NCBI GenBank assembly: GCA_964536985.1
Contig: CAZIBG010000002.1
Location: forward strand, 18,738-82,737
From: an uncultured Candidatus Saccharibacteria bacterium
GTDB lineage: Bacteria; Patescibacteriota; Saccharimonadia; Saccharimonadales; AWTP1-31
Direction: 5' to 3'
DNA length: 64,000 bases
A program made the translations under genes and the position numbers. Every line of letters starts with the position of its first letter. Position 1 is the stretch's first letter. Below, piece by piece: positions 5,701 through 54,160 of the stretch. The notes below the pieces were generated by a model, which ran no database searches, had not been told where the DNA came from, and saw only the letters and a program-made list of their open reading frames with translations.

Positions 5701-5706
5701 ATTAAA

Positions 5707-5729: not shown

Positions 5730-5858
5730 GCTAAGGCTTATATATTTAGAGTAATCTCAAGAGCAGTCCCCGGACATACGGGTGCTGCGGCGGTTCTGTA
5801 GGATAGTGAAGTTTGAGATCTTCATAAACACTACGATACCATGCTATTACGTTAATGT

Positions 5859-6566
5859 CTACTCTTCTGAGAATAGGTATTTACAAAACTCTGGTCCACG
5901 TTCGGAAACACTTGTAATGCTTTCGTCGATAACTACATCCACTCCAAATTCGCCAACATCTTTTTTAGCGAACTGTTCTTCGGTTTCATGATGTACGAAA
6001 ACGGAGTCTCCGTTTTGGCTACTGAAGCCGTTAACTTGGTTTTCTAGTTCGGCTTTAAGCGCGCAGGATAGTTCCTCTTGGTCGGAATATCTACTATCTG
6101 TAATGAAACTCGCTTTTTTTACCTGAACAACATCACCTATAAGCTGTAACCGTAATTTGGTGGTGTCTTCGAACTCTTCTGGCTCAAGAGCCCACACTTC
6201 GCCAGTTACACCAAATCTAGCACCAGAACTGGTAGTCAAAATCTTATCGAGAGGCTTATGATCGAACTCCTCAACCACGTCAGCTTTGTCGGCTATTGTC
6301 ATGGCTTTGCGGATTGTTGGTATTAAGCCAATTGTAACGCCTAGAATAACTGGTGCGAGTGCCACGCAAGCAGCTTTCTTGAGCTGCTCACGAGAAGGAG
6401 TCCTTCTTTTCTTTTCTATAGGAGCGGCGGCGGCGCGCTCTGCTAACCAGTCGTTGCGGGCAGATGTCACAAAGCGTTCTAGCTCATGATCGCCAATGCT
6501 ACGGTAGTTTTGGTCCATGACTAGATCTCTTCCCACACCTTTTTTTGCGCTTCTAGTAAATCCCAA
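5859..6566 (-). CDS. Hypothetical membrane-anchored protein (copy 2)
   Basis: Identical to 1621..2328. Confidence 0.45.
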   Translation of the reverse strand: MGFTRSAKKGVGRDLVMDQNYRSIGDHELERFVTSARNDWLAERAAAAPIEKKRRTPSREQLKKAACVALAPVILGVTIGLIPTIRKAMTIADKADVVEEFDHKPLDKILTTSSGARFGVTGEVWALEPEEFEDTTKLRLQLIGDVVQVKKASFITDSRYSDQEELSCALKAELENQVNGFSSQNGDSVFVHHETEEQFAKKDVGEFGVDVVIDESITSVSERGPEFCKYLFSEE

Positions 6567-7990: not shown

Positions 7991-8147
7991 AAATTTCCTT
8001 CGTGTTATTTTCTGGTAGAGAGGGTCCAGAACACTCAGGATATGAGAGTTGCTAGTTGCCCGGTTACGCTACTGACTCCACAATACTCAAGCGTCCAAAT
8101 ACGAGTATTGCTTCACGGTCTACAACCAAATTACTTTGATTAGAAAT

Positions 8148-8229: not shown

Positions 8230-8256
8230 AAACACCACCAGCTGTCTCTCCTGTCG

Positions 8257-8310
8257 TCCGGTTACGCTATTGGCTCATTCACGTATAAGCGTCCAGATTA
8301 CTACGTGAGT
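8257..8310. repeat. Motif B, related to leader motif A; it lies inside the candidate sRNA unit
   Basis: tccggttacgctattggctcattcacgtataagcgtccagattactacgtgagt, aligned to the A motif. Confidence 0.5.
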
Positions 8311-8385
8311 TCATCGCCTACGACAGAAATTGAGTAGGTGGTTCTTATTTTATATCCTATTGATTAGCGTTGTCAAGTATATGAA

Positions 8386-9387: not shown

Positions 9388-11175
9388 GTGAACCAACCCA
9401 AAAAAGTATCATCAGAAGCAATGGACGAAACGCTTCGTCGATACAACCGCGAGATATTGCTGAACAAACGATTCATGTTCCCAGCTTTTATATTGCCTGG
9501 CGTTGGTGTGGCGCTATCACAGTTTGTCCCAGTACTTTTGGTATCGCATTTGCTACAAATCTACCAGACAACCGGCACAATTGCCCCTCAAAAACTCATT
9601 ATTCAAATTGTACTAATTTATGTCGTTTGGTTCGCCGGTGAGATGGTTTATCGCCTGTCCGAGTACTGCAACGAACAAGGTGCCTACCGTGCCATGAAGC
9701 ACTTGTATAGCCAAGCGATGGAGGAGCTACTCCATAGAGACATGGCATTCTTTAACGACAACTTTGCGGGATCTATCACAAAACGTGCCCTTGATTACGG
9801 CGCAAGTTTTGAGGATTATGCAGATAAAATCGGCAAGAACTTTGCCACGTTTGTCATAACCTTCATTTTCAGTGTCATTGTATTATTCAGATTCTCGCCG
9901 TGGATACCATTAGTTTTATTTGTATTGTTTGCCATTACGCTTCGAGGAAGTTTCTTCTTTTTGCGTAGACGTTTACCGATAGTGTTGCAGCGAAATGCCG
10001 CATACAACGAATCAGCAGGCGTATTAGCGGATGTTGTTGCTAACGTAAACACCGTCAAGACATTCGGAAGCGAAGAACAAGAGCTGTCCCGCTATCGAGA
10101 TACAGTTAAGAAACAGATGGATCTACGTTTGAAGTCGTGGAGATACTGGAACGAACGCCACGATATGTTTGTATCTCCTATGTATGTATTAATCAATGTT
10201 CTTGGCTTATGCCTGGCCATTTATGTTGGTCAGAAATCTACCGTAAATTCTGCAGCTATTTTTGTGACATTTAACTATATAGCCCTTATAACTCGTACTC
10301 TTTGGGAACTTGGTCCAATTTACGTCGGTGTGGAGCGCTCTATAAGTAACGCCGCAGAACACGTCGAGCCACTACTGCATGAATCACGAGTCAACGACTA
10401 TCCGCACGCTGTCGATTTAAAAGTCAAAAACTCGGAGATAGAGTTCAGAAATGTCAGCTTTTATTATGAATCCAAAGCCGATCAAGCCTTATTTAAGAAT
10501 CTCAACCTTACCGTTAAGCCCGGCCAGAAGATTGGTCTAGTTGGACATAGTGGTGGGGGCAAGACAACTATCACTAAACTGCTTCTCCGCTTCATGGATA
10601 TTCAAGGCGGCCAGATACTTATAGACGGTCAAAATGTTGCAAGCGTGACTCAACAGAGTCTGCGTAGAAGCATAGCTTATGTACCACAAGAACCCCTGTT
10701 ATTTCACCGATCCTTGGCCGACAACATCAGTTACGGTAAAAGTGGTGCCTCAAAAAAGGACGTACAAATGGCTGCTAAAAAGTCACACGCCGCAGAATTT
10801 ATCGATCAATTACCCGATGGCTTCGAAACGCTTGTAGGTGAACGAGGAGTCAAGCTGTCTGGCGGCCAGCGGCAACGAATTGCTATTGCTCGGGCAATAC
10901 TAAAAGATGCCCCCATACTAGTACTCGATGAAGCAACCAGCGCCCTGGACAGCGAGAGCGAAATCCTAATCCAGAAAGCACTGTGGCAGCTCATGGAAGG
11001 CCGTACGGCAATTGTCATTGCTCACCGCTTAAGTACCATTCAGAAAATGGACAGAATTATCGTACTCGATCAAGGTCAGATTATCGAGGATGGATCACAT
11101 CAAGAACTCCTTAAAAACAAGGGTAAGTACGCCGAGCTTTGGGCACATCAATCGGGTGGTTTCATAGAAGAATAA
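9388..11175 (+). CDS. ABC exporter, fused TMD-NBD half-transporter (MsbA/type I exporter family)
   Basis: 595 aa with six N-terminal TM helices, Walker A GHSGGGKTT, signature LSGGQRQR and Walker B ILVLDEAT. The start is GTG. Confidence 0.85.
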   Translation: MNQPKKVSSEAMDETLRRYNREILLNKRFMFPAFILPGVGVALSQFVPVLLVSHLLQIYQTTGTIAPQKLIIQIVLIYVVWFAGEMVYRLSEYCNEQGAYRAMKHLYSQAMEELLHRDMAFFNDNFAGSITKRALDYGASFEDYADKIGKNFATFVITFIFSVIVLFRFSPWIPLVLFVLFAITLRGSFFFLRRRLPIVLQRNAAYNESAGVLADVVANVNTVKTFGSEEQELSRYRDTVKKQMDLRLKSWRYWNERHDMFVSPMYVLINVLGLCLAIYVGQKSTVNSAAIFVTFNYIALITRTLWELGPIYVGVERSISNAAEHVEPLLHESRVNDYPHAVDLKVKNSEIEFRNVSFYYESKADQALFKNLNLTVKPGQKIGLVGHSGGGKTTITKLLLRFMDIQGGQILIDGQNVASVTQQSLRRSIAYVPQEPLLFHRSLADNISYGKSGASKKDVQMAAKKSHAAEFIDQLPDGFETLVGERGVKLSGGQRQRIAIARAILKDAPILVLDEATSALDSESEILIQKALWQLMEGRTAIVIAHRLSTIQKMDRIIVLDQGQIIEDGSHQELLKNKGKYAELWAHQSGGFIEE

Positions 11176-11260
11176 TGATTTATTAAATCACCCCTTGTCA
11201 TCAGAGGTACGCTTATGGTAGAGTGTAAAAATCATTATTAACGAAAAGGGCGGCCCAACC

Positions 11261-11320
11261 ATGCACAGCATGAAACAACTATATTCTCCATCAGCGGTCG
11301 CTCACATCGTGACTCGCTAG
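11261..11320 (+). CDS. Candidate 19-aa small ORF (MHSMKQLYSPSAVAHIVTR) in the ABC1-ABC2 intergenic region
   Basis: ATG-to-TAG ORF seen directly in the sequence. It has only a weak RBS and no homology, so it is highly speculative. Confidence 0.15.
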   Translation: MHSMKQLYSPSAVAHIVTR

Positions 11321-11397
11321 TCGAAAACGATAGTAAAAAACTTCAAAACAAAACAATAATACCAAGTTAGAACCACTGCAGCAGGAGGCTGTCAGCT

Positions 11398-13185
11398 ATG
11401 AAAAAAGTTATCGACAATACCAACAGGGAGACATTCCGTCTTTACTGGAAATTCGCATGGAATCATAAATCGTACGTAATTGGCTCTATTATCATGAGTT
11501 CTTTATTCGTACTTTTGTACCGCTATCTGCCGCCCCTAATTGTATCTAAGATTTTGGATAGAATTAATACAGGCGACTTTGTTAAAGGCGACCTTGTGGG
11601 CTCGTTCGGAGCACTCCTATTAAGCTACGCCCTTGTAGTATTCGGCGGCGGCGTACTCGCAGGCCGCGTCTTAAACTATATTGTTTGGAAGCTCGAAATG
11701 AATGTCATGGCCGATATCCACCGACACATCTTTAATCACCTCCTAGAACAGAGCAACAATTTCCATGCTAACCGATTTGGTGGCTCGTTAGTTAGTCAGA
11801 CTAACAAATTTGCAGGTGGATATATAAGGATGTACGACACACTAATCTTTCAAACAATTTCGTTGGTGCTGTCGTTTGTATTTAGTGTAGTTATTCTATA
11901 CCCAAGAGCTCCTGGTGTAGCCCTATTCTTAGTTGTGTTTTCTATCCTGTTTATTGTTATCGCAATTAGCATCACAAAAAAAGTTCGTGAGATGTCTACT
12001 ATTTGGGCGCAAAAACAAACCCGTCAAACGGGCTATCTAGCCGATGCCGTATCCAATGTAATTGCCGTGAAGAGTTTTGCGAGACTAAAGTTTGAGAATA
12101 ATAGATTCATCAAAGCCACTAATGAGACCAGGAAGGCCATGGATGATACGAGAAAAGTAAGCATTAGCCGCGAGCTGGTTTTCTCATCTTCTAATGGGAT
12201 CCTTTTGACTTGCAGTCTTGCTATAGCCGTTGCTGGCGTAGTGTTATACGACTACAACGTTGCTACCGTCTTCTTAGTATTTAGCTATATCGGAATTATT
12301 GCCGAAAACTTGTGGGTTTTCAGTAACCACTCGTTGAAGAATATCAATAATGCACTTGGTGACGCATACGATATGACAAAAATATTAGCTATCACACCGA
12401 GCATACAAGATCCACTCCTGCCGCTTAAGCTTTCTGAAGATAAAGGAAATGTTGATTTCAAGAACATCACATTCACCCATGCCGATAACGACCGAGCCCT
12501 GTTTAATAACTTAAGCCTCAGCATAAAACCGGGTGAAAAGATTGGCCTAGTTGGGCATTCGGGCAGCGGCAAGACAACCATTACTAGCCTGATCCTTCGA
12601 TTCGCAGACTTGGACGCCGGGACAATCGAAGTTGACGGCCAAGATATTTCACAAATTAAACAATCCGACCTACGATCAAAAATAACCTACGTTCCACAAG
12701 AACCCTTAATGTTCCACCGCACCATTGCCGAAAACATAGCATACGGCAATCCAAAAGCCACACAAGAACAAATCACCGCAATCGCCAAGCTGGCTAATGC
12801 TCATGAGTTCATTCATACCCTTCCGCTCGGCTACGATACGTTGGTCGGAGAGAGAGGCGTTAAGCTTTCGGGTGGTCAGCGCCAACGTATCGCCATTGCT
12901 CGAGCAATGATTAAGAACGCACCGATCTTAGTTCTTGACGAGGCGACTAGTGCCCTAGATTCAGAAAGTGAAAAGCTAATCCAGCAAGCACTATGGAAAC
13001 TCATGGAAGGCCGCACGGCAATTGTTATTGCCCATCGTCTAAGTACTATCCAGAAGATGGACAGGATCATAGTACTCGATCGCGGCAAGATACTAGAACA
13101 AGGTACTCACGATCAACTCCTAAAGAACAAAGGCAAGTATGCCGAACTTTGGGCTCACCAATCCGGCGGATTTATAGAGGATTAA
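11398..13185 (+). CDS. ABC exporter half-transporter, paralog of the preceding gene
   Basis: 595 aa. The C-terminal ~110 aa are almost identical to ABC1 at protein level while the DNA is diverged. An AGGAGG RBS lies 9 nt upstream of the ATG. Confidence 0.85.
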   Translation: MKKVIDNTNRETFRLYWKFAWNHKSYVIGSIIMSSLFVLLYRYLPPLIVSKILDRINTGDFVKGDLVGSFGALLLSYALVVFGGGVLAGRVLNYIVWKLEMNVMADIHRHIFNHLLEQSNNFHANRFGGSLVSQTNKFAGGYIRMYDTLIFQTISLVLSFVFSVVILYPRAPGVALFLVVFSILFIVIAISITKKVREMSTIWAQKQTRQTGYLADAVSNVIAVKSFARLKFENNRFIKATNETRKAMDDTRKVSISRELVFSSSNGILLTCSLAIAVAGVVLYDYNVATVFLVFSYIGIIAENLWVFSNHSLKNINNALGDAYDMTKILAITPSIQDPLLPLKLSEDKGNVDFKNITFTHADNDRALFNNLSLSIKPGEKIGLVGHSGSGKTTITSLILRFADLDAGTIEVDGQDISQIKQSDLRSKITYVPQEPLMFHRTIAENIAYGNPKATQEQITAIAKLANAHEFIHTLPLGYDTLVGERGVKLSGGQRQRIAIARAMIKNAPILVLDEATSALDSESEKLIQQALWKLMEGRTAIVIAHRLSTIQKMDRIIVLDRGKILEQGTHDQLLKNKGKYAELWAHQSGGFIED

Positions 13186-13186
13186 T

Positions 13187-14950
13187 ATGAAAAAATTTGA
13201 TAACATGAATGCCTCCAAAAAAGCATTACTGTTCATCATGAAGAAGCATAAACGATTCTTCATAACTGAGACATTGCTAGTTGTCACAGCTACATTGCCG
13301 CTGTCATTAATGACGCTTATTCCGGCACGCATTGCGGGAGCGGTCTTTAGTGGTAACTCAAAGCAATTACTAATAGAGTCTGTGATCTTCTGTTTGCTGG
13401 GATGGATCCACGCCATTTTCTGGAACAAAGCAGATTTGTACTACGTAAAGAATACTTACCCATTGTTCTATGACTTGGGTCAGGAAACATTCGAATATGT
13501 ACTAGATAAAGAATATCCAGCGTTTGTTGCCAGTAGTCCGTCTAAAATGGCACAGTACACCAACGAGCTAAGGGACAACGTCGATCGAATATGGTCGAGC
13601 ATTCACTGGGGATATATAGGCTTTGCATTCCAGGTACCGGCAATCATGATCATTTCGCTCAAGGTAAGTTGGGTTCAATCAGTCATATACCTACTTAGTG
13701 TAATGCTAATGGTAATTGTGTTAGTTCGAAGATCGGCACGACTTAACACTCTTACAGATAAGATGTTCACCCAGGACAGTAATCTAAACTCGGTAGTGAT
13801 TGATTCGCTGACCAACTTTGTTAACGTTAAATCGTTCAATGCCGAGCGTAAAGAGATTGATCAGTACGCCGGTCTAATTGTCACATCTAAAAAGAAGTAT
13901 GACGTGGCCAATACTGCCTACATGATGTTCTGGTTTGCTGCGTCCATAGTGATTCGATTTATCACCTGGCCGCTCATCCTAGCCAGCACATACTTACTGT
14001 TTTCCCGTAAGCAGATTAGCGCTGAACAAGTAGTTCTATCTATATCGGTTCTGATAAGTCTGACTGAATTTGTATGGGGACTTGTAGATCGAATTGCAAA
14101 TGCCAAGAAGAACTTCTCAAAAATGCAGAATGGATACCATTATCTTGCAAAGAACGAACAGATATTTGGTGATGGCAAGTCTAAAAACAAAGATAAAAAA
14201 TCTGCTCCAAGCTTTGAATCTACATTAACGTTGCAAGACTTAAGTTTTGCCTACCCTGACCGACCAGAGGAATTTGTCTTGCAAGACCTAAATCTAACCA
14301 TCAATAAGAATGAGAAAATTGGAATAGTCGGCAAGAGTGGAAGTGGAAAATCTACCCTCGTAAAATTGCTGCTTGGTTTTTACGACTATAGCGAAGGGAG
14401 CATACAGTTAGATGGCCAATCGGCAACAAAGCATGACCTTTCAATGCTCAATTCTTACGTGCCCCAAGACACATCACTGTTCCAGCAAACAATCAGCTAT
14501 AACATAGCCTATGCAAAACAATCAAAAGCAACTGAATCCGAGATTGTTACTGCAGCAAAAAAAGCACATGCCCATGAGTTCATAATGAACCTTAAGGATG
14601 GATATGACACGTTGGTCGGTGAACGTGGTGTGAAGTTGAGTCTTGGACAACGACAGCGAATTGCGATTGCACGAGCCTTTCTAAAGAATTCCGAACTTCT
14701 AATTTTAGATGAAGCAACCAGTGCTCTTGATAGCAAGACGGAAGCCAATATACAAAGTGCCCTAGAGGAACTTTGGCAAGATAAGACTGTTATTGCTATC
14801 GCTCACCGATTGTCGACCCTCAATAATGTTGACCGTATTGTGGTAGTAGATAACGGTAAAATCGTGGAAGTTGGAACAAAAGATCAGCTACTTGCTATGA
14901 ACGGTGTATTCACTTCACTATGGAATCAGCAAAAGAACGGCCTGCTATAA
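13187..14950 (+). CDS. ABC exporter half-transporter (third, more divergent)
   Basis: 587 aa with Walker A GKSGSGKST, LSLGQRQR and ILDEAT. Its start abuts the ABC2 stop, suggesting an operon. Confidence 0.85.
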   Translation: MKKFDNMNASKKALLFIMKKHKRFFITETLLVVTATLPLSLMTLIPARIAGAVFSGNSKQLLIESVIFCLLGWIHAIFWNKADLYYVKNTYPLFYDLGQETFEYVLDKEYPAFVASSPSKMAQYTNELRDNVDRIWSSIHWGYIGFAFQVPAIMIISLKVSWVQSVIYLLSVMLMVIVLVRRSARLNTLTDKMFTQDSNLNSVVIDSLTNFVNVKSFNAERKEIDQYAGLIVTSKKKYDVANTAYMMFWFAASIVIRFITWPLILASTYLLFSRKQISAEQVVLSISVLISLTEFVWGLVDRIANAKKNFSKMQNGYHYLAKNEQIFGDGKSKNKDKKSAPSFESTLTLQDLSFAYPDRPEEFVLQDLNLTINKNEKIGIVGKSGSGKSTLVKLLLGFYDYSEGSIQLDGQSATKHDLSMLNSYVPQDTSLFQQTISYNIAYAKQSKATESEIVTAAKKAHAHEFIMNLKDGYDTLVGERGVKLSLGQRQRIAIARAFLKNSELLILDEATSALDSKTEANIQSALEELWQDKTVIAIAHRLSTLNNVDRIVVVDNGKIVEVGTKDQLLAMNGVFTSLWNQQKNGLL

Positions 14951-32011: not shown

Positions 32012-33910
32012 CTAAACAAGTGCTGCCTTGATACGCCTTACACCGGACGAGCTAGCCTCTTCTTTGAGAATCTTGAATTTCTTGCCCTCTTCGAATAACT
32101 GTAGAGAGTGGTCTACGTGTGGACCGCCGCAGATTTCGAAGCTGAATGGCTTTTCGGCTCCATCGGCAATCATCTTATAAACCTTAACCGTGTCGCCATA
32201 GCGATCACCAAATTGACCAAGCGCGCCTAATGGCCCTGTAGCTTCTGCTGTTGGGTACTCTGCCCAGCTAACTTTTAGATCATTTCCGATCTGTTCGTTA
32301 ACAATCGCTTCTACTTGATCGAGTTCTTCACGAGTTACTTTTTGGTCGTGACTAAAGTCAAATCGCAGTCGTTCCTCGGTAATATTACTACCTCGTTGGA
32401 TAACGTGATCGCCGAGTACTTCGCGGAGTGCCTGGTACATAAGGTGTGTTGCCGTGTGATACTTCTTGTGTTGATCCGTTTGGCCACCAAGCCCACCCTT
32501 GAACTGACCCTTGGTAGCCGTCCGCGACATGTCCCGCTGTTTTTTCATATGAGCATCAAATTGCTCACGCCAATCTTCTGCTAGGTCAATCGCCTGCTTT
32601 TCTGCCTCTTCAACACTGAGCTCAACCGGAAAACCATAGGTGTCATATAGCTTAAAGATGAGTTCGCCGTGAATAGATTTGTCTGAGTCCTTGAATAGCT
32701 TTTCAAACTCTCTCAGTCCTTTGGTTAGTGTCTGACGGAATACTTTTTCTTCTTTGCTAAGAGTAGCCATGATTTCGTCTTTTTGAGCTGCAATTTCTGG
32801 AAAATCTTGATGGTATGAATCAAGCACAATAGGAATAGCTAGCTGCATTAGATCTTTTTCAATACCAAGATCAAAGGCGAATCTAATTGCTCGACGCAGT
32901 AGCCGACGCATAACATACCCTTGTTCTTTATTGCTTGGAACAACACCATCAACTGCTAAGAAAACAGCTACACGTAAGTGATCAGCGATAACACGCATGG
33001 CAGCGGTATGGTCGGTATAATCCTTGCCTGTTTCCTTTTGAAGTCCTTCGATTATTGGCCAAAGCAAACTAATTTTAAACATGTCCGGGCTATCGATTGC
33101 AGCAGCGGCAATACGCTCTAGGCCACCACCAAAATCAACGTTCTTGTTTGGTAACTCTTCGAAACCTTTGTCGGTTCGCTTGTAAGTCATAAATACCGAG
33201 TTACCAATTTCCATAAAGCGACCACAGTCACAGTTTGGATGACAATGAGGACCAAAGTCGGTGTTGTGCTCGATCTCGTCGAACATATAAAATACTTCGC
33301 TGTCTGGACCACATGGGTCACCAACAGGAGTGGTCGCTGGCTTTCCGCCTCGGCTCCACCAGTTCTTGGCACCATCATAATAGAAGATACGCTCGCCTTC
33401 GTTGATGCCACGCTTATAGCCGTCTGCTTCTGAGCCAATCATCGCTGGCTGGGCATCGATACCTTTTGCTTTGAAAAGGTCTTGCCAGATTTTAACTGAT
33501 TCATCATCTTTAGGAAGATCGAATTCATCGTCGCCAGCAAAGACCGTTACATAGATTTTATTTGGATCAAGTCCAACTTTTTCGGTCAAGAAGGTGAAGA
33601 ACCATGGCAGTTGCTCGGCCTTAAAATAATCGCCAAAGCTCCAGTTACCAAGCATCTCGAAGAATGTTGTGTGGCGGTTATCGCCAACCTCCTCAATATC
33701 ATCGGCCCGAAAACATGTCTGACTATCAGCCACCCGTGAACCAGCCGGATGAGGCTCGCCTAACAGATACGGAAGTAGTGGCTGCATTCCAGAGCCGGTA
33801 AATAGTGTTGTCGGGTCATTATCGGGTATTAGCTTGGCACGCGGAATGACAACATGTTTGTTTTGTTTGCAAAAATCGAGATAGGCTTTACGGATGTCTT
33901 GAGCGTTCAT
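32012..33910 (-). CDS. alaS: Alanine--tRNA ligase, short form lacking the C-terminal editing and C-Ala region
   Basis: 632 aa. The N-terminal catalytic domain (FTGSGMQPL ... FEMLGNWSFGDYFK) is clear. A tataat box lies 6 nt upstream of the ATG. Confidence 0.85.
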   Translation of the reverse strand: MNAQDIRKAYLDFCKQNKHVVIPRAKLIPDNDPTTLFTGSGMQPLLPYLLGEPHPAGSRVADSQTCFRADDIEEVGDNRHTTFFEMLGNWSFGDYFKAEQLPWFFTFLTEKVGLDPNKIYVTVFAGDDEFDLPKDDESVKIWQDLFKAKGIDAQPAMIGSEADGYKRGINEGERIFYYDGAKNWWSRGGKPATTPVGDPCGPDSEVFYMFDEIEHNTDFGPHCHPNCDCGRFMEIGNSVFMTYKRTDKGFEELPNKNVDFGGGLERIAAAAIDSPDMFKISLLWPIIEGLQKETGKDYTDHTAAMRVIADHLRVAVFLAVDGVVPSNKEQGYVMRRLLRRAIRFAFDLGIEKDLMQLAIPIVLDSYHQDFPEIAAQKDEIMATLSKEEKVFRQTLTKGLREFEKLFKDSDKSIHGELIFKLYDTYGFPVELSVEEAEKQAIDLAEDWREQFDAHMKKQRDMSRTATKGQFKGGLGGQTDQHKKYHTATHLMYQALREVLGDHVIQRGSNITEERLRFDFSHDQKVTREELDQVEAIVNEQIGNDLKVSWAEYPTAEATGPLGALGQFGDRYGDTVKVYKMIADGAEKPFSFEICGGPHVDHSLQLFEEGKKFKILKEEASSSGVRRIKAALV

Positions 33911-34035
33911 GCAGCTATTATAACAGAGGTAGCAGCAGACTCAAGTTGTAACTTAGCTCCTGGGCTTGGCATTCCGTAAAAGAATCATGTGACTGGCACG
34001 CACCCTTAGCGTCTATGGGTGGCAGGCACAGTTAC

Positions 34036-34311
34036 TCACTTTGAGGGCGCTGATGTAACTGCAGTCTCGAGGGTAACTACTATTGGCGGTGCGATCACAA
34101 CTTCTGGCTGAGGGTCGGGTATAAGTAACTTAACCGCCAACGCCGTTGCCGTCACAGCCAAGATCGCTAGACCGGAGCCGACCATTGTCGCAATATATTC
34201 CTGATTATCAGTTGTACCTTTATTCGGCTGGAGGGCCCGTTGATTGACAGGTACATGCTCTCCGCGCCGCCAATTAGACATCATCTCGCCACCTCGGCCT
34301 CTGGGCGCCAT
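34036..34311 (-). CDS. Small hypothetical TM protein; the start is uncertain
   Basis: 91-aa ORF with one TM helix (GSGLAILAVTATALAVKLL). A separate 34-aa ORF with a strong RBS overlaps its 5' end in another frame. Confidence 0.3.
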   Translation of the reverse strand: MAPRGRGGEMMSNWRRGEHVPVNQRALQPNKGTTDNQEYIATMVGSGLAILAVTATALAVKLLIPDPQPEVVIAPPIVVTLETAVTSAPSK

Positions 34312-34378
34312 TAATTCCTGCAGGTATAGCCACTACACCTAGAGTGACTGGTGTTTCTTGTTGTATTTGTTTGCCCAT
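34274..34378 (-). CDS. Candidate 34-aa ORF (MGKQIQQETPVTLGVVAIPAGINGAQRPRWRDDV) with a strong GAAGGAG RBS
   Basis: GAAGGAGataatt precedes the ATG. The ORF lies just downstream, in the minus-strand sense, of 85-bp repeat copy 1. Confidence 0.25.
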   Translation of the reverse strand: MGKQIQQETPVTLGVVAIPAGINGAQRPRWRDDV

Positions 34379-34456
34379 AATTATCTCCTTCAGAGGTTAT
34401 GGAACTCGTCTCCACAAACTAAAATAAACACCTGGTGGTGTATGAGTTTAAGAGGG

Positions 34457-34541
34457 AGAATTCGTCCCGGTTTCGCTACTTGCTCCCCGTGTATCCAAGC
34501 GACCAGATACAGATATACGGATCATTGCATGACTTTACGTC
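34457..34541. repeat. 85-bp exact direct repeat, copy 1 of 2
   Basis: Identical to 37370..37454. It contains the imperfect hairpin ccgtgtatc...gatatacgg. Confidence 0.9.
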
Positions 34542-34661
34542 AATATTTACTATATTACTTTTTTGACATATTGTCTATATACTTATTTATACTTTGACTC
34601 GAAGACCCCGTTCCTGAACAATGATTAATACCACCGATGCAACACAAGGTTGATCTTCATG

Positions 34662-35909
34662 CTATTTTTTGGGAATAGTATCGAAGACCAATGCCGCTTC
34701 TGTTGGCGAAACATATTCATCACCCCTGTTGCATACATATACACTTTGACCGATAGGTTCTACTGTGAGCCACTTCGAGATTTTCTTATTCGTAGTGAAT
34801 ATTGCTACCCGGGATGTATCTACATCTGGACTAAGGTCTAGAACGGAACAGTCTACTGGCAGTAAAGCGTTCATTCCTTCTATGCGTCGGGGGGATTTCC
34901 CTCGTAAATCAGACGCCATCAGGCCAAATTTCGCTGCCTCGGATGGAATATTCTGGGGACTAATATACGCAATAGGTTGCTTGCTACCTTGTTCCAGCGG
35001 GTCAAGCCCTGCAATATCAAGATTCTTTTGCTCGTAAAGTTCTTCTGGACTCGGAGAATTCCATTCGCCAATAACACTGATAGCAGCACTCACCCCATCG
35101 GATCCAAGTTCGGTAGAAGCAGGAAGAAATCCACTGTAGCCCGGTACCGGAAGGGTCAGTGCAATAAGCGTGATTCGCGCTGGCGAGATCACACGACCAA
35201 GACCATTGGGTCCTTCTTTAGTAATAGCTTTTCTAAGCACTTGTAGTGCCTGACGACCAAGCTTTTGGCTGGCGTTAAGAAATTTGTACCTCTTGGTGGT
35301 TTCATAAACTGCACGCTCCGTTAAAGATTCGATGTCCTTAGGTGCAAGGTGAGGAGTCTCGCTTTGACGGGCAAGTGTAGCTGGTTCGATTTTAAGTCCT
35401 TTTGCGTAATTCCAGACTGCTTTGGTAGCCTCCCGTAGCACTGATTCCTCAGGCGCTTCGTCTGTATCATGGGAAAGTGAGACGATAGGAGTGTGATCAC
35501 CGACTTGCCGAATCATAAAGCCGGCCCCAAAGTTTCCACGGTCGGTACGACTAAGCAAATACGAGACAACTTTAGCATCTAACTCATCGTAATAGGTGTT
35601 GAGTCGACGAATTATATAGCGAGTACCATCATCGTTACGAACTTCTGGAAACTCTATTTCTTCGTCGCCATCTAGCAGTTGCCTTCGGGCATCCGGGCTA
35701 GCGCTTAAAGCTGCCTGCGCAATATAAGATAGCGCATCAAAAAGACGCCCCGACATATCCGCCATAGGGTCTTTACTGCCCTCAAGCCCAAGAACATTTT
35801 GCCCCTCCGGATAATCACTTAGTGCCAGCATACGAACCGGCTTACGTGGTTCCGGAATGTGATCGACCGTCTGAACGTCGATAATCTGATTACGTTCCAG
35901 ATAAGCCAT
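34662..35909 (-). CDS. Hypothetical protein (415 aa), last gene of the repeat-bracketed cassette
   Basis: Long intact ORF with no recognisable motif. Confidence 0.5.
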   Translation of the reverse strand: MAYLERNQIIDVQTVDHIPEPRKPVRMLALSDYPEGQNVLGLEGSKDPMADMSGRLFDALSYIAQAALSASPDARRQLLDGDEEIEFPEVRNDDGTRYIIRRLNTYYDELDAKVVSYLLSRTDRGNFGAGFMIRQVGDHTPIVSLSHDTDEAPEESVLREATKAVWNYAKGLKIEPATLARQSETPHLAPKDIESLTERAVYETTKRYKFLNASQKLGRQALQVLRKAITKEGPNGLGRVISPARITLIALTLPVPGYSGFLPASTELGSDGVSAAISVIGEWNSPSPEELYEQKNLDIAGLDPLEQGSKQPIAYISPQNIPSEAAKFGLMASDLRGKSPRRIEGMNALLPVDCSVLDLSPDVDTSRVAIFTTNKKISKWLTVEPIGQSVYVCNRGDEYVSPTEAALVFDTIPKK

Positions 35910-35911
35910 AG

Positions 35912-36616
35912 CTACTTCTTTTCTACACCTTTGGAGCCAGGTTGTTCTGGCGCTAAACTCTGCTTCTCTACCTCTCGCGCTTTACGATATGTAGTGACTC
36001 GCAAATCACCCACTAATGCACCTACAAAAAGCCCCGTTACAACGCCCAGAGCACTTATCCAACGCTGCTTCTTGTCATTATTATGTGAGACGAGTACATC
36101 CTGCGCAGGCGTAGAAGTCTGCTGAAAAGTCTCGGCAGCACTTAGTCCGTTCAACGCAAGTGTATAGCGTTGGATATAATCATAAATATCTAGTTCTTGT
36201 GTACCGCAAGGCTCCCCGGGATAGGTCTTCAGCATTTCCATTTTTTCCGTATCGGGACTAGATGCCAAAGCGCCTCCCGTCACAACTATCTTCAGTTTTG
36301 CTTCGCATGCCTCCGGTAGTTCGTCTCTTAAATCGTTAAGGGTCCTCGTGGCCCTGCTGACACCTGTTGCCGCCATTTCGTCTTTATCAGCCAGATAATT
36401 CTGCAAAGCAGCAGCCTTTTCGGTGGCAACGTGGCTTGCAATTTCAAAACCTCCAGCACTAAATGCCCCAACGAGAAGTAAACCCGCACCATAACCCCGT
36501 ATATTGGCGCCTATTCTAGTAATGCGATCGAACCGTTGCTCATTAAATACTTCCGTTTCTATTGCGGGCTGCGGAGCGGATACCTCGGTTGTTGCAAGAT
36601 GCTCTAATTGTGGCAT
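35912..36616 (-). CDS. Hypothetical membrane protein, paralog A
   Basis: 234 aa with an N-proximal TM, a central Cys pair and a C-proximal TM. It has the same architecture as the adjacent upstream gene. Confidence 0.5.
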   Translation of the reverse strand: MPQLEHLATTEVSAPQPAIETEVFNEQRFDRITRIGANIRGYGAGLLLVGAFSAGGFEIASHVATEKAAALQNYLADKDEMAATGVSRATRTLNDLRDELPEACEAKLKIVVTGGALASSPDTEKMEMLKTYPGEPCGTQELDIYDYIQRYTLALNGLSAAETFQQTSTPAQDVLVSHNNDKKQRWISALGVVTGLFVGALVGDLRVTTYRKAREVEKQSLAPEQPGSKGVEKK

Positions 36617-37317
36617 TACGCTACCTCTTCCGTTGAGTCTGTTATCTGCAGCATTGGCACTTCCGGCAATGCAACACGATGTGCCGGTATGTAAACTCCG
36701 TTTGTGTTTGTGTGGCCGTTTCTATAATTGCGTCGTGAATCTACAGAAGTTCCTATGCCAATAGCAGCGCCAATTCCAGCGCCAATAAGTGATAATGCTT
36801 GAAGTGCCCCTGTGCTGTGATTTGCTTTTTCATCTGCGGCATCAAAGCTAGCCTCCGCTTCCTTAAGTGCAGAACTTTTCTTGGTATTATCAGCGTCCGC
36901 TGAAAGTAAAGGATGCACTTCGGCACGTACGTCCCTGTCAAACTCCCCACATGGTTTTGATGGCAGGTCAATCATGTCCTCAACAACGGTGTTCTCTGGA
37001 GTCCCAAACAATATTCCACGATCAAGGTATAGTTTTAGCGCCAAAAGACAACCCTCTGATGCATCTTCCCGGGCAGTGTCGTAAACACGGCTGGCAAGCT
37101 CCGCTTTTGGACGAGCAGCATTAAGAGCTTGCTTCGCATTACCTCGTGCCGAGTAATCGTTGCTGCTAGCACCCGCTGATACACCAGCTAAAAATCCACC
37201 CGAGATTAAAGCACCTATAGTGACATGTTTAGCTACAATTTTTGTTTGATCTAGAATAGACCGAGTTCTAGATACCTCATAAAACGGCCGAGCTGGCTCA
37301 GCAATACGGTTTCCCAT
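36616..37317 (-). CDS. Hypothetical membrane protein, paralog B
   Basis: 233 aa with matching TM and Cys-pair architecture. Its start overlaps the stop of paralog A. Confidence 0.5.
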   Translation of the reverse strand: MGNRIAEPARPFYEVSRTRSILDQTKIVAKHVTIGALISGGFLAGVSAGASSNDYSARGNAKQALNAARPKAELASRVYDTAREDASEGCLLALKLYLDRGILFGTPENTVVEDMIDLPSKPCGEFDRDVRAEVHPLLSADADNTKKSSALKEAEASFDAADEKANHSTGALQALSLIGAGIGAAIGIGTSVDSRRNYRNGHTNTNGVYIPAHRVALPEVPMLQITDSTEEVA

Positions 37318-37369
37318 AGTTAATACTCCAACTAATATTTATTAGTGGGCGAAATATGCAATTATGCAA

Positions 37370-37454
37370 AGAATTCGTCCCGGTTTCGCTACTTGCTCCC
37401 CGTGTATCCAAGCGACCAGATACAGATATACGGATCATTGCATGACTTTACGTC
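37370..37454. repeat. 85-bp exact direct repeat, copy 2 of 2
   Basis: Identical to 34457..34541. It sits about 50 nt upstream of the cassette's first start codon and is flanked by AT-rich DNA. Confidence 0.9.
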
Positions 37455-37499
37455 TTGTATATATTACTACTTTATTGATTATTCGTCAATAATTATGCT

Positions 37500-38546
37500 T
37501 TATACTAGTATGCCACCACCAAGAACTGCCTGCTGGTCATAAATAACTGCCGATTGCCCAGGAGTTGCAGCGCGAATATCATCTTTAAGCTTAAGATGAA
37601 TATCGTCGCCCTCAATTACAAGCTTTGCGGAAATTAACGGAGCCCTATGGCGAGTTCTGACCTGCACCTCTTGTCCATCTTTTGGAGTAATGTTTATCCA
37701 ATGAATGTCCGTCATGTTAAGCCTGTTAGTCCACAGATTCTTATCGTTAATATCAGTAGTAACGCGCACCTGGTTGGTAGCCATATCTTTACCAATGACG
37801 TAATACGGTAAGCCACCACCGACATCCAGTCCGTGACGCTGACCGATTGTGTAAAAAATAGCCCCGTCATGCTGACCAACTGTTATGCCGTTTTCGTCTA
37901 TAATATCGCCAGGTTTTTGAGGGCCCAATTCGTAGATTAAAAAGTCTTTGATGCCGACCTTGCCCACAAAACAAATGCCCATGCTCTCTTTTTTGGTTGC
38001 CGTTACCAGATTGAACTTTTCTGCCAGTTTGCGAACCTCCGGTTTAGTATAGTCACCAAGAGGAAATAGAGTGTGCTTAAGCGCCTCCTCTGTTACACGG
38101 TAAAGAAAATAGGTCTGGTCTTTGTTCTCGTCTTTAGCTCGCAGTAGCTTACCATCTTTTACCCGAGCATAATGTCCGGTTGCGATTAGGTCTGCACCAT
38201 CCTCTAAGCACATATCAAGGAAGACTTTAAATTTTACCTCCTGATTACACATGATGTCAGGGTTGGGTGTGCGACCTGCCTGATATTCGGCAACCATGTA
38301 GTCAACGACTTTTTGACGGTACTCCTTCTGGAAGTCATACATCTTAAAGGGGATTCCGAGCTGAACGGCGACTCGTTTTGCATCCTGGTAGTCCTCTTTC
38401 CAGGGACAAGGCATGCCAGGGAGGTCCTGACTCCAGTTCTTCATGTATACGCCCGTAACATCATAACCCTGTTCTTTTAACAGGGCAGCGGTAACGGAAC
38501 TATCTACTCCGCCACTGAGGCCGACATATACTTTTTGCTTGTTCAT
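37500..38546 (-). CDS. mnmA: tRNA-specific 2-thiouridylase
   Basis: 348 aa with the PP-loop YVGLSGGVDSSV and MnmA-like layout. A tataat box lies 7 nt upstream of the ATG. Confidence 0.85.
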   Translation of the reverse strand: MNKQKVYVGLSGGVDSSVTAALLKEQGYDVTGVYMKNWSQDLPGMPCPWKEDYQDAKRVAVQLGIPFKMYDFQKEYRQKVVDYMVAEYQAGRTPNPDIMCNQEVKFKVFLDMCLEDGADLIATGHYARVKDGKLLRAKDENKDQTYFLYRVTEEALKHTLFPLGDYTKPEVRKLAEKFNLVTATKKESMGICFVGKVGIKDFLIYELGPQKPGDIIDENGITVGQHDGAIFYTIGQRHGLDVGGGLPYYVIGKDMATNQVRVTTDINDKNLWTNRLNMTDIHWINITPKDGQEVQVRTRHRAPLISAKLVIEGDDIHLKLKDDIRAATPGQSAVIYDQQAVLGGGILV

Positions 38547-38578
38547 TGAAGCTATTATAACAGAGGTGGCAGAAAATA

Positions 38579-48498: not shown

Positions 48499-48515
48499 AT
48501 GGTGGAGCTGCCGGT
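48499..48515. repeat. Right copy of the imperfect direct repeat flanking the HNH cassette; overlaps the tRNA-like fragment
   Basis: See 47958..47974. Confidence 0.4.
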
Positions 48516-48532
48516 GATCGCAACCGGGTCCG
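48500..48532 (-). other. tRNA 3'-end-like fragment (T-arm, acceptor 3' strand and CCA), possibly an integration-site remnant
   Basis: Minus strand reads ccggt-tgcgatc-accgg-cagctcc-a-cca. No matching 5' acceptor strand (ggagctg) lies upstream, and the T-loop is non-canonical. Confidence 0.3.
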
Positions 48533-48952
48533 TCAGTTAACATGGCTCAATGACTACAGGCTTAGTTTGTCTTATATTTCTTTAGCCAAAATGCTAGAGA
48601 CAAACAAAAAACATGCTGGCTGCAGCCCTAAGGCTTAGCTATACGTAGGGGCAACTACGTATAGAGCAATCAGAAGTATATAGCGCTGACACAAAATATC
48701 TGATGTCTCTTGTGAAGCGGCATCCTAATTAAATTAGGCTGCTAGTGCGTAGTCTGCGTTTCGAGCGAAAATTTCTTTTACGCTTGTTAGCAAGTCTGCG
48801 CGAGCTGTAGAATTTTCTGCAACTGTGTTGTTTGATCCAGCTAACGTGTAGATCAATCCGGCCTGCCATTTGAGTCTGTTAAAGTCCAACGTCGAGCTTA
48901 AAATTCAGCCCCATTAAGCAGTATTATATCATAAATTAAGCATTAGTGATAT

Positions 48953-51155: not shown

Positions 51156-52526
51156 CTACGGCTTGGCTACGGGATTTGGACCTGAATAGTCAGATCCCAG
51201 TGATTTAAGTCGCTTCATCGGATAGGAGCCGTCGGTACCCAGTACTCCATTCGAACAGTTTTGACCCTTATTAATACAGCCCTTCGTCCAATGCTCCATG
51301 ATCTGATTATTCCAACCACCATACCAGTCGCCATGTAGTGATGTACCATCCGGGACATTAGCCATACGATCAGATGAAAGATGCCAGCCAGAATAATTAA
51401 GGTTACCCGGCCATGATACATGGTAGCTTACTTGCGGCATGATGTACGGATGAGACGGAGGGCAAGCTAACTTACCATTTACACTCGTGAAGTATGAAAG
51501 ATGATCCTTGTGATTGGTCGATGGGTTTTGATCGAGTTGCGTTGAATCGAGCACCGGAGAACCGTTGGCATGGACAGCAACACAAGGTTGAAAATAGATT
51601 ACGGCCATCAACTTAATATCGTATTTATCACAAACGTTGGGATCGCAGTTAGTAGCTTGGTTAGGATTTGGCGGACAACTATCTGGAATCGTTTGCCCCT
51701 CGTAGGTATATACCAGACTGCCCGTGTAGCACTGCCACTGAATACCGTTTTCATTCATCAACGACGGATCAGTATTACCTGTCGCTTTTCCGGCGATCAT
51801 TTTTAGACCTTGCGGCATGATCTTTGTCTGGGCATTAAGATTAGCTGCCGATTTATAATACATAAGAATATCATTAGGAATTACCACCTTATCATTTGCA
51901 TCCTGAACTGCAGGCATCCAATACCCTGTACGATTAGCCTCGTAACCAGCGCATGTTCCACCACCACTATTAACTAAACTACTATCAGTAGTAGAGGCGT
52001 TAGCTTTGGTATTACCCCAGAACATATGTAAATGAGCCTTGCCAACCTGTGGAACCCCGTTAATTGGCGGATAGACAATTGGATCGTCATAGTTAAGGTG
52101 AGAAAACTGGCAGTAGAATCTAAACTGACCCTGTCCGTTGGGCGTGTTATAGCCACCAGAACTTGCATCATAATTACCTCGGTTATCGAGGTTTTGGGTC
52201 ACCACAGCCTCGGAGTCATTGGAGTACTGTGCCGGTCGGGCACCTAATGTGGTATTAATAACAACCCCGCCTAAATCTGTAGGCGTAGCTTTGCCAAACT
52301 TCACCGCCCTACCGCCAGATGCGCCGGGCACTTGCTGTTCAAGTGCAATACTTTCCTGGCCCGACTCAGCCTCAAAGCTGGCCTGATTGGTAGCAGCTTT
52401 AGTAAAGACCAGTAACGCGGTTCCTAAAAGTGCGAATATAATAACTGTCGAAAAACCAATAACCAGACGCTCATGGCGGGCAAACCATTTGCGTAGCTTA
52501 GGATATTGTAATAACGCTCTACTCAT
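51156..52526 (-). CDS. Secreted/anchored hypothetical protein, paralog 1 (DUF1996-like HLHMFWGN / DWYGGW motifs)
   Basis: 456 aa. The N-terminal anchor plus linker are shared with the neighbouring gene, as are C-terminal motifs (FSHLNYDDP, GKAHLHMFWGNT, GYWMPA, GDWYGGW). Confidence 0.5.
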   Translation of the reverse strand: MSRALLQYPKLRKWFARHERLVIGFSTVIIFALLGTALLVFTKAATNQASFEAESGQESIALEQQVPGASGGRAVKFGKATPTDLGGVVINTTLGARPAQYSNDSEAVVTQNLDNRGNYDASSGGYNTPNGQGQFRFYCQFSHLNYDDPIVYPPINGVPQVGKAHLHMFWGNTKANASTTDSSLVNSGGGTCAGYEANRTGYWMPAVQDANDKVVIPNDILMYYKSAANLNAQTKIMPQGLKMIAGKATGNTDPSLMNENGIQWQCYTGSLVYTYEGQTIPDSCPPNPNQATNCDPNVCDKYDIKLMAVIYFQPCVAVHANGSPVLDSTQLDQNPSTNHKDHLSYFTSVNGKLACPPSHPYIMPQVSYHVSWPGNLNYSGWHLSSDRMANVPDGTSLHGDWYGGWNNQIMEHWTKGCINKGQNCSNGVLGTDGSYPMKRLKSLGSDYSGPNPVAKP

Positions 52527-52549
52527 AATACTTATGGTAAGTATAACAT

Positions 52550-54160
52550 CTAGGGCTTACAGTAAGCACCGGACATTGGAGCATTTTGGTTATAGGCGTG
52601 TGTTGGATTCAATGGTATACACAGCTGGCTGTATAGGGAGTTCAGCGAAACTTTGTAGTTAGCGCTATTACCTTGTGTATCATACTGAGGCCGATATTTT
52701 AATGCCCGACCAGGGTAAGGAGTTGCGTTATTTGGTCCACCGTTGCTCAAGTACCCAAAGCCACAGTCTGCAGCTGCACCGCTTGGATCTTTATAGTTAA
52801 CACAGTTGTCGACCCACTCTTTATTGATGTCTTTTTGCCATCCACCCCACCAGTCGGCGTGATGCATGGAGCCGCGTGTTCCAGTTAGTCGCGGCGTTGT
52901 ACCAACAGATGTTTTGTCTACATCCGAAGATAAATACCAGCTGGAAGTGTCCTCGCCGGGCATGACTACATAGTTTATGAAGTACGAGATAGCTGGATAA
53001 AGATCGTTATCACCCGTAGGACCGTTGCCACCATAACGTCCATCACAATTACCGAAGAACCATGAGCCACGATTCACGCCGGATGCACGCCACTGTGTGT
53101 AATCACCATAGTTCGTGTTATTTTTTGGCCAACAGTAGAAGAACTTAATCTCCATTTCTAATACCGTTCGGACATTCGGATATGACCCGCTTTGGCCAAC
53201 ACATGTCGGAATCTCATCCACACCTTTGGGTGTATTAGGTCCTGAAAAGTTATCACTACATTTATAGTTCGCTTCGCCTTGGCCACCGCCATTCTGAATA
53301 GGCACCTCTGCGACTGATGTTGGCATTGGGGAGATGTTGGCCATACCCGGCTTGTAGACCTGGGCGTCCTGAACAGGATTTGGGCCTTTATAGTACACCA
53401 CTACTCGCTCTGGGATTCTGGCATTTCCCTGGCCGTCGATCATTGCAGGCGCCCAGTAACCCGAGCGATTAAGCTCCTGTCCGTTGCAGGTTGATGATCC
53501 TGAATCCTTAAGCGTGTCGTATGTGCTATAAGCGTTTACGTCAGTGTTTCCAAAGAACATATGTAAGTGAGCTTTACCGGGGACGCCGGGGTAAAGCAAT
53601 GGATCGTCATAGGCAAAGTGCGAGAATTCACAAGCTGTTCGATTTTGACCTCCCTCTGGTATCGGGAATGCTTGCTCGGGGTTGCCATTTGGATTATTCA
53701 AGTATGCCGACCGGGGGCCTAACAGCGGAGAATCATTACCAATAGGTAATTGCGACTGAAGCGTATTCTTGTACGCTGAATTATCATGGTTTTTGTTCCT
53801 AATTGTTTGTGACTTAATCATGGCCAAGTTAGTCTGATACCCGTTAACTGCCCCAGCCGCTCCAAAACGAACTGCCTTGCCGCCTGATGCGCCGGGCACT
53901 TGTTGTTCTAATGCAATACTTTCTTGACCTGACTCAGCTTCGAAACTGGCTTGGTTTGTGGCGGCTTTTGTAAACACCAACAAGGAGATGCCGAGCACAA
54001 CGAATACCAGTACACTTGCACCGCCAACCACCTGTCGCTCATGGTGCTGCAGCCATTTAATGGCAGACTTTACGGGAACCCCAAACCGTTTAGTAAAATT
54101 TTGCATATTAGTTATGCCTAGTATATCAGTTATAATCTGGTAATTGATAGCAAATGACAA
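52550..54160 (-). CDS. Secreted/anchored hypothetical protein, paralog 2
   Basis: 536 aa with a shared N-terminal 37-aa stretch and C-terminal motifs (FSHFAYDDP, GKAHLHMFFGNT, GYWAPA, ADWWGGW). The true start is probably internal, at about 54106. Confidence 0.5.
   Translation of the reverse strand: MSFAINYQIITDILGITNMQNFTKRFGVPVKSAIKWLQHHERQVVGGASVLVFVVLGISLLVFTKAATNQASFEAESGQESIALEQQVPGASGGKAVRFGAAGAVNGYQTNLAMIKSQTIRNKNHDNSAYKNTLQSQLPIGNDSPLLGPRSAYLNNPNGNPEQAFPIPEGGQNRTACEFSHFAYDDPLLYPGVPGKAHLHMFFGNTDVNAYSTYDTLKDSGSSTCNGQELNRSGYWAPAMIDGQGNARIPERVVVYYKGPNPVQDAQVYKPGMANISPMPTSVAEVPIQNGGGQGEANYKCSDNFSGPNTPKGVDEIPTCVGQSGSYPNVRTVLEMEIKFFYCWPKNNTNYGDYTQWRASGVNRGSWFFGNCDGRYGGNGPTGDNDLYPAISYFINYVVMPGEDTSSWYLSSDVDKTSVGTTPRLTGTRGSMHHADWWGGWQKDINKEWVDNCVNYKDPSGAAADCGFGYLSNGGPNNATPYPGRALKYRPQYDTQGNSANYKVSLNSLYSQLCIPLNPTHAYNQNAPMSGAYCKP

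Follow-up and report, generated by a model that had tools for sequence, protein, structure and literature searches.

In a 64,000-nucleotide (nt) stretch of DNA from an uncultured Candidatus Saccharibacteria bacterium, hereafter the window, an 85-base-pair (bp) sequence occurs twice in the same orientation, at 34457-34541 and 37370-37454, bracketing three minus-strand genes that encode proteins of 233, 234 and 415 amino acids (aa). The locus raises the question of what these repeats are. The original prediction offered two answers: a structured, riboswitch-type cis-regulatory leader shared by two transcription units, or direct repeats left by insertion or excision of the three-gene cassette. 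Our analysis favors the first answer. With a probability of roughly 85%, each copy is, in minus-strand orientation, the aptamer (ligand-binding domain) of a class-II cyclic di-GMP (c-di-GMP-II) riboswitch at the 5′ end of an mRNA, the two copies being identical through recent gene conversion and lying in a modular, recombining island of envelope genes.

The exact repeat and its relatives in the window

The two copies, AGAATTCGTC...TTTACGTC, match over 85 bp with 0 mismatches, and a match of comparable kind was seen in 0 of 100 dinucleotide-preserving shuffles, which bears out the exact repeat that had been claimed. The string as first typed held 84 letters; the A at positions 34457 and 37370 is shared too, bringing the element to 85 bp. 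The boundaries are sharp on both sides, with G at 34456 facing A at 37369 and A at 34542 facing T at 37455. Independent short-read contigs from other samples (Logan; L084-L087) carry the identical cassette, each reaching from the last 31 nt of one aptamer to the first 30 nt of the other; breaks exactly inside the repeat are what a true exact repeat is expected to produce. It is probable that assemblies break at this repeat and that such riboswitch-flanked islands are under-assembled in metagenome bins.

Rfam and a covariance model, R1, built from six aptamers showed three additional aptamers in the window, two of them above the Rfam threshold and the third with R1; of the five in total (Table 1), only the two 85-bp copies are exact. 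A generic, scattered repeat had been named as one finding that would overturn the original prediction, and a REP- or MITE-like element unrelated to regulation would explain a sequence that occurs more than once and adjoins AT-rich DNA. However, all five related copies lie in coding-strand 5′ leaders and the element matches a structured-RNA family with covariation, which makes a dispersed repeat scarcely conceivable.

The repeats match the c-di-GMP-II riboswitch family

Both copies gave a statistically significant covariance-model match to Rfam clan CL00127, to which RF01786 (c-di-GMP-II) and RF03169 (c-di-GMP-II-GAG) belong. RF01786 is the best model for both copies when matches are reported by E-value (Table 1; E-values from a 3.8-kb region). 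In the cmscan alignment, helices P2 (UGC/GCA) and P3 (CCGU.UAUC/GAUA.ACGG) are fully canonical in both copies, and the 'imperfect hairpin' ccgtgtatc...gatatacgg noticed earlier is real, corresponding to helix P3 of the aptamer. The P3 loop pairs with the 3′ joining strand in a 5-bp pseudoknot, UCGCU/AGCGA in both copies and GCAC/GUGC in the consensus. Deviations from the RF01786 consensus at paired positions are compensatory, involving the spelling of this pseudoknot and the closing pair of P1 (C-G versus G-C). All upper-case unpaired nucleotides of the RF01786 consensus are kept in both copies, namely A12, UGA, U.UAU.UGG, GAG, AGU and AACCG.

Covariation across the family

The alignment underlying R1 was padded with N to stay ungapped; MAFFT misaligned the 5′ halves of divergent aptamers. 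A scan of JGI metagenomes with a degenerate core pattern, combined with the window and its relatives, yielded 94 full-length aptamers on contigs of 25-73% G+C. Standard pairs fill 86.3% of the pair cells in these 94 aptamers, versus 57.7% after shuffling (none of 500 shuffles came up to 86.3%) and 31-44% with slid partners. P2 is paired at 91% and P3 at 94%, with double-sided changes in 10 of 11 pairs, and the pseudoknot is 98.5% paired, with the swaps UA/AU (51/32) and UA/CG (52/38) at its two outer pairs. The inner P1 pairs are well supported in the family alignment, where every helix shows covariation. Because the 94-aptamer alignment was fitted to the model, it is biased towards the structure, but the case still stands on the slide controls and the variety of pair types. 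The ORFs (open reading frames) downstream of other pattern matches include PilZ-like proteins, response regulators and wall-anchored proteins, the usual company of c-di-GMP.

Leaders, promoters and predicted switching

The shared riboswitch-type leader proposed at the outset agrees with the placement of the two aptamers, each of which sits on the coding strand, preceded by a promoter-like site and followed by an ORF. A gap of 52 nt separates the end of copy 2 from the ATG of the 233-aa gene, and one of 78 nt separates copy 1 from the 34-aa ORF. The promoter regions of copy 2 and of the 8049-8132 aptamer show 82% similarity (repeat family D9), implying that promoter and aptamer were duplicated together.

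In the mechanism that we propose, the promoter-like site would put position +1 at the first aptamer base, and the aptamer would form the very 5′ end of two mRNAs, one for the 233/234/415-aa operon and one for the 34-aa ORF and the 91-aa membrane protein. Binding of c-di-GMP in the pocket would close the short P1, with its three canonical closing pairs, and P1 closure would re-pair the downstream leader, altering access to the Shine-Dalgarno (SD) sequence. At copy 1, the ligand may instead act on a weak terminator. Folding models suggest how this might work in leader 2, where UUCGCCC could pair either with the 3′ end of the aptamer, GGGACGAA, or, through its CCC, with the SD. When the aptamer of copy 2 is enforced in folding, this CCC shifts from the aptamer 3′ end to the SD, and the unpaired probability of the SD GG falls from ~0.45 to 0. 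Folding of copy 1 gave no clear direction of control.

A second aptamer type occurs at this locus in relatives; it begins with ACAGAGCAAUUGC and is termed A here, B being the window type. Five independent leaders carry it (L004, L008, L208, L154 and L182), and in 5 of 5 a 5′ element, ACAGAGCA, overlaps P1 while a middle element, UGCUCUGU, is complementary both to ACAGAGCA and to the SD/start region. This design reads most simply as an OFF switch, whereby a ligand-locked P1 frees the middle element to occlude the SD. For the control exerted by the leaders of the window, an OFF switch in which c-di-GMP lowers translation is slightly favored.

Ligand specificity, decay and sequence constraint

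Several observations weigh against the riboswitch assignment. The RF01786 scores lie 2.2-2.6 bits under the curated gathering threshold (GA), which is an operational and not a biological criterion, and at gathering thresholds only the variant model RF03169 is reported for the two copies. P1 is weak, being canonical only in the three closing pairs GUC/GAC and two or three scattered outer pairs, and the score deficit arises there, where cmscan marks non-canonical pairs. Matches in the promoter and terminator scans occur at background frequency, with counts not above those in shuffles, so only the placement of the promoter-like sites before the aptamers is informative. Copy 2 lacks a clear intrinsic terminator downstream, and copy 1 has only a short (5 bp) terminator-like hairpin after it. 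Switch folding disagrees between the window and L001, a genome of the same species, in which the SD is sequestered in both states. Finally, GGDEF, EAL and HD-GYP motifs or domains were looked for in the 64-kb window only and none was seen, a result that is uninformative for the whole genome.

The report of RF03169 at gathering thresholds, the unusually short P1 and the lack of a visible c-di-GMP enzyme in the window would all fit specificity variants, either c-di-GMP-II-GAG or others, that sense a different ligand such as another cyclic dinucleotide. A single conserved nucleotide separates the two Rfam consensus lines, with RF03169 reading GCGA-G-ACCG and RF01786 reading GUGC-A-ACCG. Both copies read GCGA-A-ACCG, and cmscan marks a mismatch at that G. 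By this criterion, a reading of the two Rfam consensus lines alone, the canonical A files the elements under the canonical class, with c-di-GMP as the predicted ligand. The RF01786 bit score is also the higher one (51.3 versus 46.3), the RF03169 score comes mostly from the shared pseudoknot spelling UCGC/GCGA, and the other aptamers of the window pass the RF01786 threshold (61.8 and 62.5 bits) or nearly copy one that does. A specificity variant is improbable on these grounds.

The mostly non-canonical P1 and the RF01786 score below GA would also suit decaying relics that no longer regulate in a reduced genome, and no conserved switch logic was found for the window-type aptamer. Against decay stands the conservation of the aptamers. 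L001 shares 99.2% nucleotide identity with the window in alaS, 99.5% in an ftsA-like gene and 99.4% in obg. Between these two genomes, aptamer 1 together with leader 1 is 98.8% identical (leader 1 by itself, 98.7%), versus 85-91% for the cassette genes. The B aptamer of another relative, L216, is 100% identical to the L001 aptamer L001:71 across lineages ~13% apart, and identity is only 87-92% in the adjacent 233/234-aa genes of the same two relatives; the mnmA gene of L216 is 86.7% identical to that of the window, and the mnmA-side flank of L182 87.7%. The pocket nucleotides are all intact, and five copies occur in 64 kb, each with a promoter-like site. These comparisons indicate that the aptamers are under strong constraint, and relic status is very unlikely.

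The same relatives suggest how the two riboswitch aptamers of the window became identical. The two B-type aptamers of L001 (L001:71 and L001:2985) differ from each other at several positions, in P1 and P2, and P1 of L001:71 is 4 bp long (CGUC/GACG). The window 85-mer equals the downstream copy, L001:2985, save for one base. It follows that the upstream copy of the window was probably overwritten by recent gene conversion between paralogous leaders.

A modular island between mnmA and alaS

The gap between mnmA and alaS is a modular island of units, each consisting of a promoter, an aptamer and one or more genes, with changing cargo. The alaS gene points to Candidatus Saccharibacteria (TM7), with 88% aa identity to the best GTDB representative. 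Names on the 80 best alaS hits are nearly all Saccharibacteria, Saccharimonadales/Saccharimonas or Patescibacteria, and the rest read only bacterium or uncultured bacterium. An aptamer lies between mnmA and alaS in 2 of these 80 neighborhoods, L004 and L008. In the order mnmA to alaS, L004 has an A aptamer and a CAP/YkwD-like protein, and L008 has an A aptamer, a 227-aa homolog of the 233-aa protein (E = 3e-7) and a 100-aa transmembrane (TM) protein. L208-L210 carry an A aptamer followed by a CAP lipoprotein and proteins of 242, 211 and 433 aa, homologous to the 233-, 234- and 415-aa proteins (31%, 28% and 43%). L216 combines A and CAP with a B aptamer and homologs of the 233- and 234-aa proteins, its contig ending inside the 234-aa homolog, before alaS. 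L001 and the window share one order: B with the 233-, 234- and 415-aa genes, then B with the 34-aa and 91-aa ORFs. No riboswitch was detected upstream of the distant module copies in L211-L215, either with filters off or with Rfam, so the link between riboswitch and module is confined to the near relatives of the window.

Sequence divergence within the island differs strongly from that of its surroundings. Relative to L001, the three cassette genes have dS values of 0.30, 0.43 and 0.57, about 10-fold above alaS (0.035), and dN/dS values of 0.16, 0.24 and 0.09. The low dN/dS marks them as real genes under purifying selection, and the high dS means that the alleles are far older than the backbone and that the block has been exchanged by recombination. 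The promoter and B-type aptamer before the 233-aa gene are identical between L001 and L216 (L001 1-70, L216 2209-2363 and L182 1-106 were compared), and the L001 backbone is 99% identical to the window. This suggests, from sequence comparison, that the island is a mosaic formed by recombination between lineages.

These data also bear on the second answer of the original prediction, in which the 2.9-kb cassette is mobile, having inserted or being able to excise between the repeats. The repeats would then be its footprints, as terminal direct repeats or duplicated target sites. Exact 85-bp direct repeats around three genes are what such an element would leave, the dS contrast between same-species genomes shows that the block is exchanged, and recombination between the repeats could delete the cassette. 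However, the segment 34542-37369 contains no integrase, transposase, recombinase or other mobility gene. Both repeats look like complete and functional aptamers, each on the coding strand behind a promoter-like site of its own, and the two copies of L001 are non-identical, each in its own leader. Relatives carry one to three aptamers with different cargo, precise absence of 34542-37369 was found in none of them, and an empty-site variant was seen in 0 of 80 Saccharibacteria alaS loci. The mobile-cassette explanation is largely refuted, and we consider it highly unlikely. What survives of the cassette idea is a strain-variable, recombining block of three genes; the insertion scar does not.

Features of the window

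The features of the putatively riboswitch-controlled units and of the other window aptamers are collected in Table 1.

Table 1 Aptamers, leaders and genes of the locus and related aptamers in the window (GA, gathering threshold; SD, Shine-Dalgarno sequence).
Feature	Coordinates	Strand	Description
c-di-GMP-II aptamer, copy 1	34457-34541	-	RF03169 46.3 bits (GA 40); RF01786 51.3 bits (GA 53.5), E = 1.3e-9; R1 100 bits; leader of the small-ORF unit
c-di-GMP-II aptamer, copy 2	37370-37454	-	RF03169 45.0 bits (GA 40); RF01786 50.9 bits (GA 53.5), E = 1.7e-9; R1 98.8 bits; leader of the 233/234/415-aa operon
c-di-GMP-II aptamer	8247-8330	-	RF01786 61.8 bits, above GA; followed by a strong intrinsic terminator, CCCCGGACA-GAAA-UGUCCGGGG-UUUUU
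c-di-GMP-II aptamer	8049-8132	-	RF01786 62.5 bits; own promoter-like site TTGACA...TATTAT; before an operon of 489-, 235- and 175-aa proteins and a lyase
Fifth aptamer copy	3811-3896	-	R1 68.7 bits; duplicated from 8049-8132 but carrying two single-A insertions; not reported by Rfam at GA
Promoter-like site TTGACG-17-TAATAT	37461-37489	-	Consensus scan; -10 ends 7 nt before the first base of copy 2
Promoter-like site TAGACA-17-TATAGT	34549-34577	-	Consensus scan; -10 ends 7 nt before copy 1
Leader 2, putative expression platform	37318-37369	-	Small hairpins UGCAUAAUUGCA and CUAAUAAAUAUUAG; SD GGAG 9 nt before the ATG; from sequence and constrained folding
Leader 1	34379-34456	-	UCUCCCUCUU (complementary to the SD); hairpin ACACC-ACCA-GGUGU then UUUAUUUU, 34428-34441; SD AAGGAGA
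233-aa membrane protein	36616-37317	-	Hydrophobic segments at ~aa 27-50 and 169-193; Cys90/Cys123 in the loop between; no known family
234-aa paralog of the 233-aa protein	35912-36616	-	Two hydrophobic segments; Cys104/Cys137; start overlaps the stop of the upstream gene
415-aa soluble protein	34662-35909	-	Without hydrophobic segment, Pfam domain or PDB fold match; rare family
34-aa ORF	34274-34378	-	Strong SD; doubtful as a coding sequence; its stop codon overlaps an internal start (ATGATG) in the next ORF
91-aa single-pass membrane protein	34036-34311	-	81-82 aa from the internal ATG used by gene callers in L001 and L002
mnmA	37500-38546	-	
alaS	32012-33910	-	

The cassette proteins and small ORFs

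The minus-strand gene layout described originally, with proteins of 233, 234 and 415 aa, a 34-aa ORF and a small TM protein, agrees with the ORF list. At 26% identity (E = 4e-8), the 233- and 234-aa proteins are distantly paralogous, and both have the claimed order of TM segment, Cys pair and TM segment; their hydrophobic segments are glycine-rich and flank a loop of ~120 aa that contains the conserved Cys pair. Homologs of the 233-aa protein were found in L208 (31% identity, 9e-22), L008 (25%, 3e-7) and L211/L212. None of the cassette proteins matched Pfam, NCBIfam or PADLOC, and a profile search against PDB sequences gave no match; the well-characterised homologs that could have undone the original prediction did not turn up in these searches.

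The 415-aa protein, correctly described as having no recognisable domain, belongs to a rare family. A word-index search gave one match, a GTDB genome scan with the protein returned nothing, and an exhaustive phmmer search of 1.84 billion representative sequences found 16 relatives, none with a Pfam domain; a profile run against the word index then contributed one further match. In every context examined, members of this family come after a run of one to four small genes that lack annotation, and several of these genes show homology to the 233-aa family. The single-sequence AlphaFold model of the 415-aa protein was unusable (pLDDT 34.5); a model based on a multiple sequence alignment reached pLDDT 71, and Foldseek found no match to it at E ≤ 0.001 in PDB or in BFVD, a set of viral folds. 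A START/BPI-like fold was considered from weak matches (E ~0.04-0.5) and was not accepted. Judging by their topology, by the Cys pairs and by the CAP lipoprotein that accompanies them in relatives, the 233-, 234- and 415-aa proteins probably form an envelope-associated module.

In the second unit, positions 34312-34378, the 67-nt 5′ part of the 34-aa ORF, differ from L001 by 8 nonsynonymous and 0 synonymous changes, in contrast to 98-100% identity over the 400 nt around them. A fast-evolving peptide is one reading of this ORF and a non-coding sequence the other, its coding status being doubtful. The 91-aa ORF is 97.8% identical to L001 at the nucleotide and aa levels alike.

The flanking genes alaS and mnmA each have a 26-nt motif directly upstream of the start codon (33910-33935 and 38547-38572), with 92% identity between the two; on the minus strand it reads CTGYYACCTCTGTTATAATAGCTKCA then TG. 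With only 6 nt between the end of the TATAAT and the ATG, the alaS and mnmA mRNAs may be leaderless and share a promoter type.

Other aptamers and repeated genes

The aptamers at 8247-8330 and 8049-8132 are 198 nt apart, and the terminator after the first is followed by the promoter-like site of the second. This is a tandem arrangement in which each aptamer seems to have its own promoter. Positions 1-3862 and 4239-8100 form a 3862-bp tandem duplication with 0 mismatches, whose identity ends inside the aptamer, at the single-A insertions of the left copy (3811-3896). The duplicated segment includes the putatively riboswitch-controlled operon, encoding proteins of 489 aa (secreted-like), 235 aa (single TM) and 175 aa (GNAT-like), together with the 3′ part of a Lyase_1 gene, and could be a very recent event or an assembly artefact.

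Elsewhere in the window, three tandem paralogous ABC exporter genes (595, 595 and 587 aa; 62-73% nucleotide identity in parts) occupy 9388-14950, and two tandem DUF1996 paralogs occupy 51156-54160. Both are local gene families expanded in a small genome. The tmRNA gene at 48500-48912 on the minus strand (RF00023, 78.5 bits) is interrupted in its tag-coding region by a long insertion that the model lacks.

Relation to known riboswitches and biological meaning

The c-di-GMP-II riboswitch class (RF01786) was described in 2010. It is cited as a known class (PMC5737381, PMC9481103). The window copies share its P1-P2-P3 architecture, albeit with a weak P1, the pseudoknot between P3 loop and 3′ strand, the conserved unpaired nucleotides and the predicted place in the 5′ untranslated region. 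As with many known members of the class, the genes downstream of them code for proteins that are secreted or at the surface. They depart from typical RF01786 members in scoring 2-3 bits under GA, in having a P1 of three canonical closing pairs and in the UCGCU/AGCGA pseudoknot; they also differ from known cases in their host, a Saccharibacteria (Patescibacteria) epibiont, and in the orphan genes that they would regulate. With RF03169 they share a score above GA (46.3 and 45.0 versus 40) and the pseudoknot spelling GGUCGC...GCGA, but they carry the canonical A and lack its distinguishing G (GCGA-G-ACCG).

Regulation of several envelope-protein operons by one second messenger has a counterpart in Clostridioides difficile, where c-di-GMP riboswitch regulons control surface proteins and pili. 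By analogy, the window may resemble these regulons in placing several envelope-protein operons under multiple copies of the same messenger's riboswitch, although the organism and the proteins differ. Tandem c-di-GMP-II riboswitches have been reported as 59 doublets and 9 triplets (PMC9481103). The doublet at 8247-8330 and 8049-8132, before one operon, is of this kind; the 85-bp copies are not, since they lie 2.9 kb apart and head two separate transcription units rather than one leader. No report of c-di-GMP riboswitches in Saccharibacteria was found in the literature searched. Of the undescribed system that had been proposed, the RNA drops out, being a known class that Rfam already detects automatically. 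The proteins stand, and the new part is an uncharacterised, putative regulon of orphan envelope proteins.

Saccharibacteria are ultrasmall epibionts. The regulation of their swarmer-to-mother-cell transition is stated to be completely unknown (PMC11665869), and the metagenome-assembled genomes of ultra-small bacteria and archaea from groundwater, taken as a group, are reported to contain diguanylate cyclase genes (PMC9938205). One speculative scenario, possible but unlikely as a whole, is that c-di-GMP acts through a battery of class-II riboswitches on a strain-variable surface-protein island, comprising the CAP-domain lipoprotein, the TM-Cys-Cys-TM paralogs and their 415-aa partner, and that these would form an undescribed envelope module for host attachment or for the swarmer-to-mother-cell transition. 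The c-di-GMP could be self-made or host-derived, the latter option arising from the lack of a visible cyclase in the window.

As a natural leader predicted to respond to a ligand, the element could serve as an expression tool in Saccharibacteria. For the biology of the organism, five c-di-GMP-II aptamers in 64 kb single out a few orphan proteins, secreted or in the membrane, as a candidate second-messenger regulon. The fast-recombining mnmA-alaS island is among its units, which together yield a short, testable list of candidate host-interaction genes.

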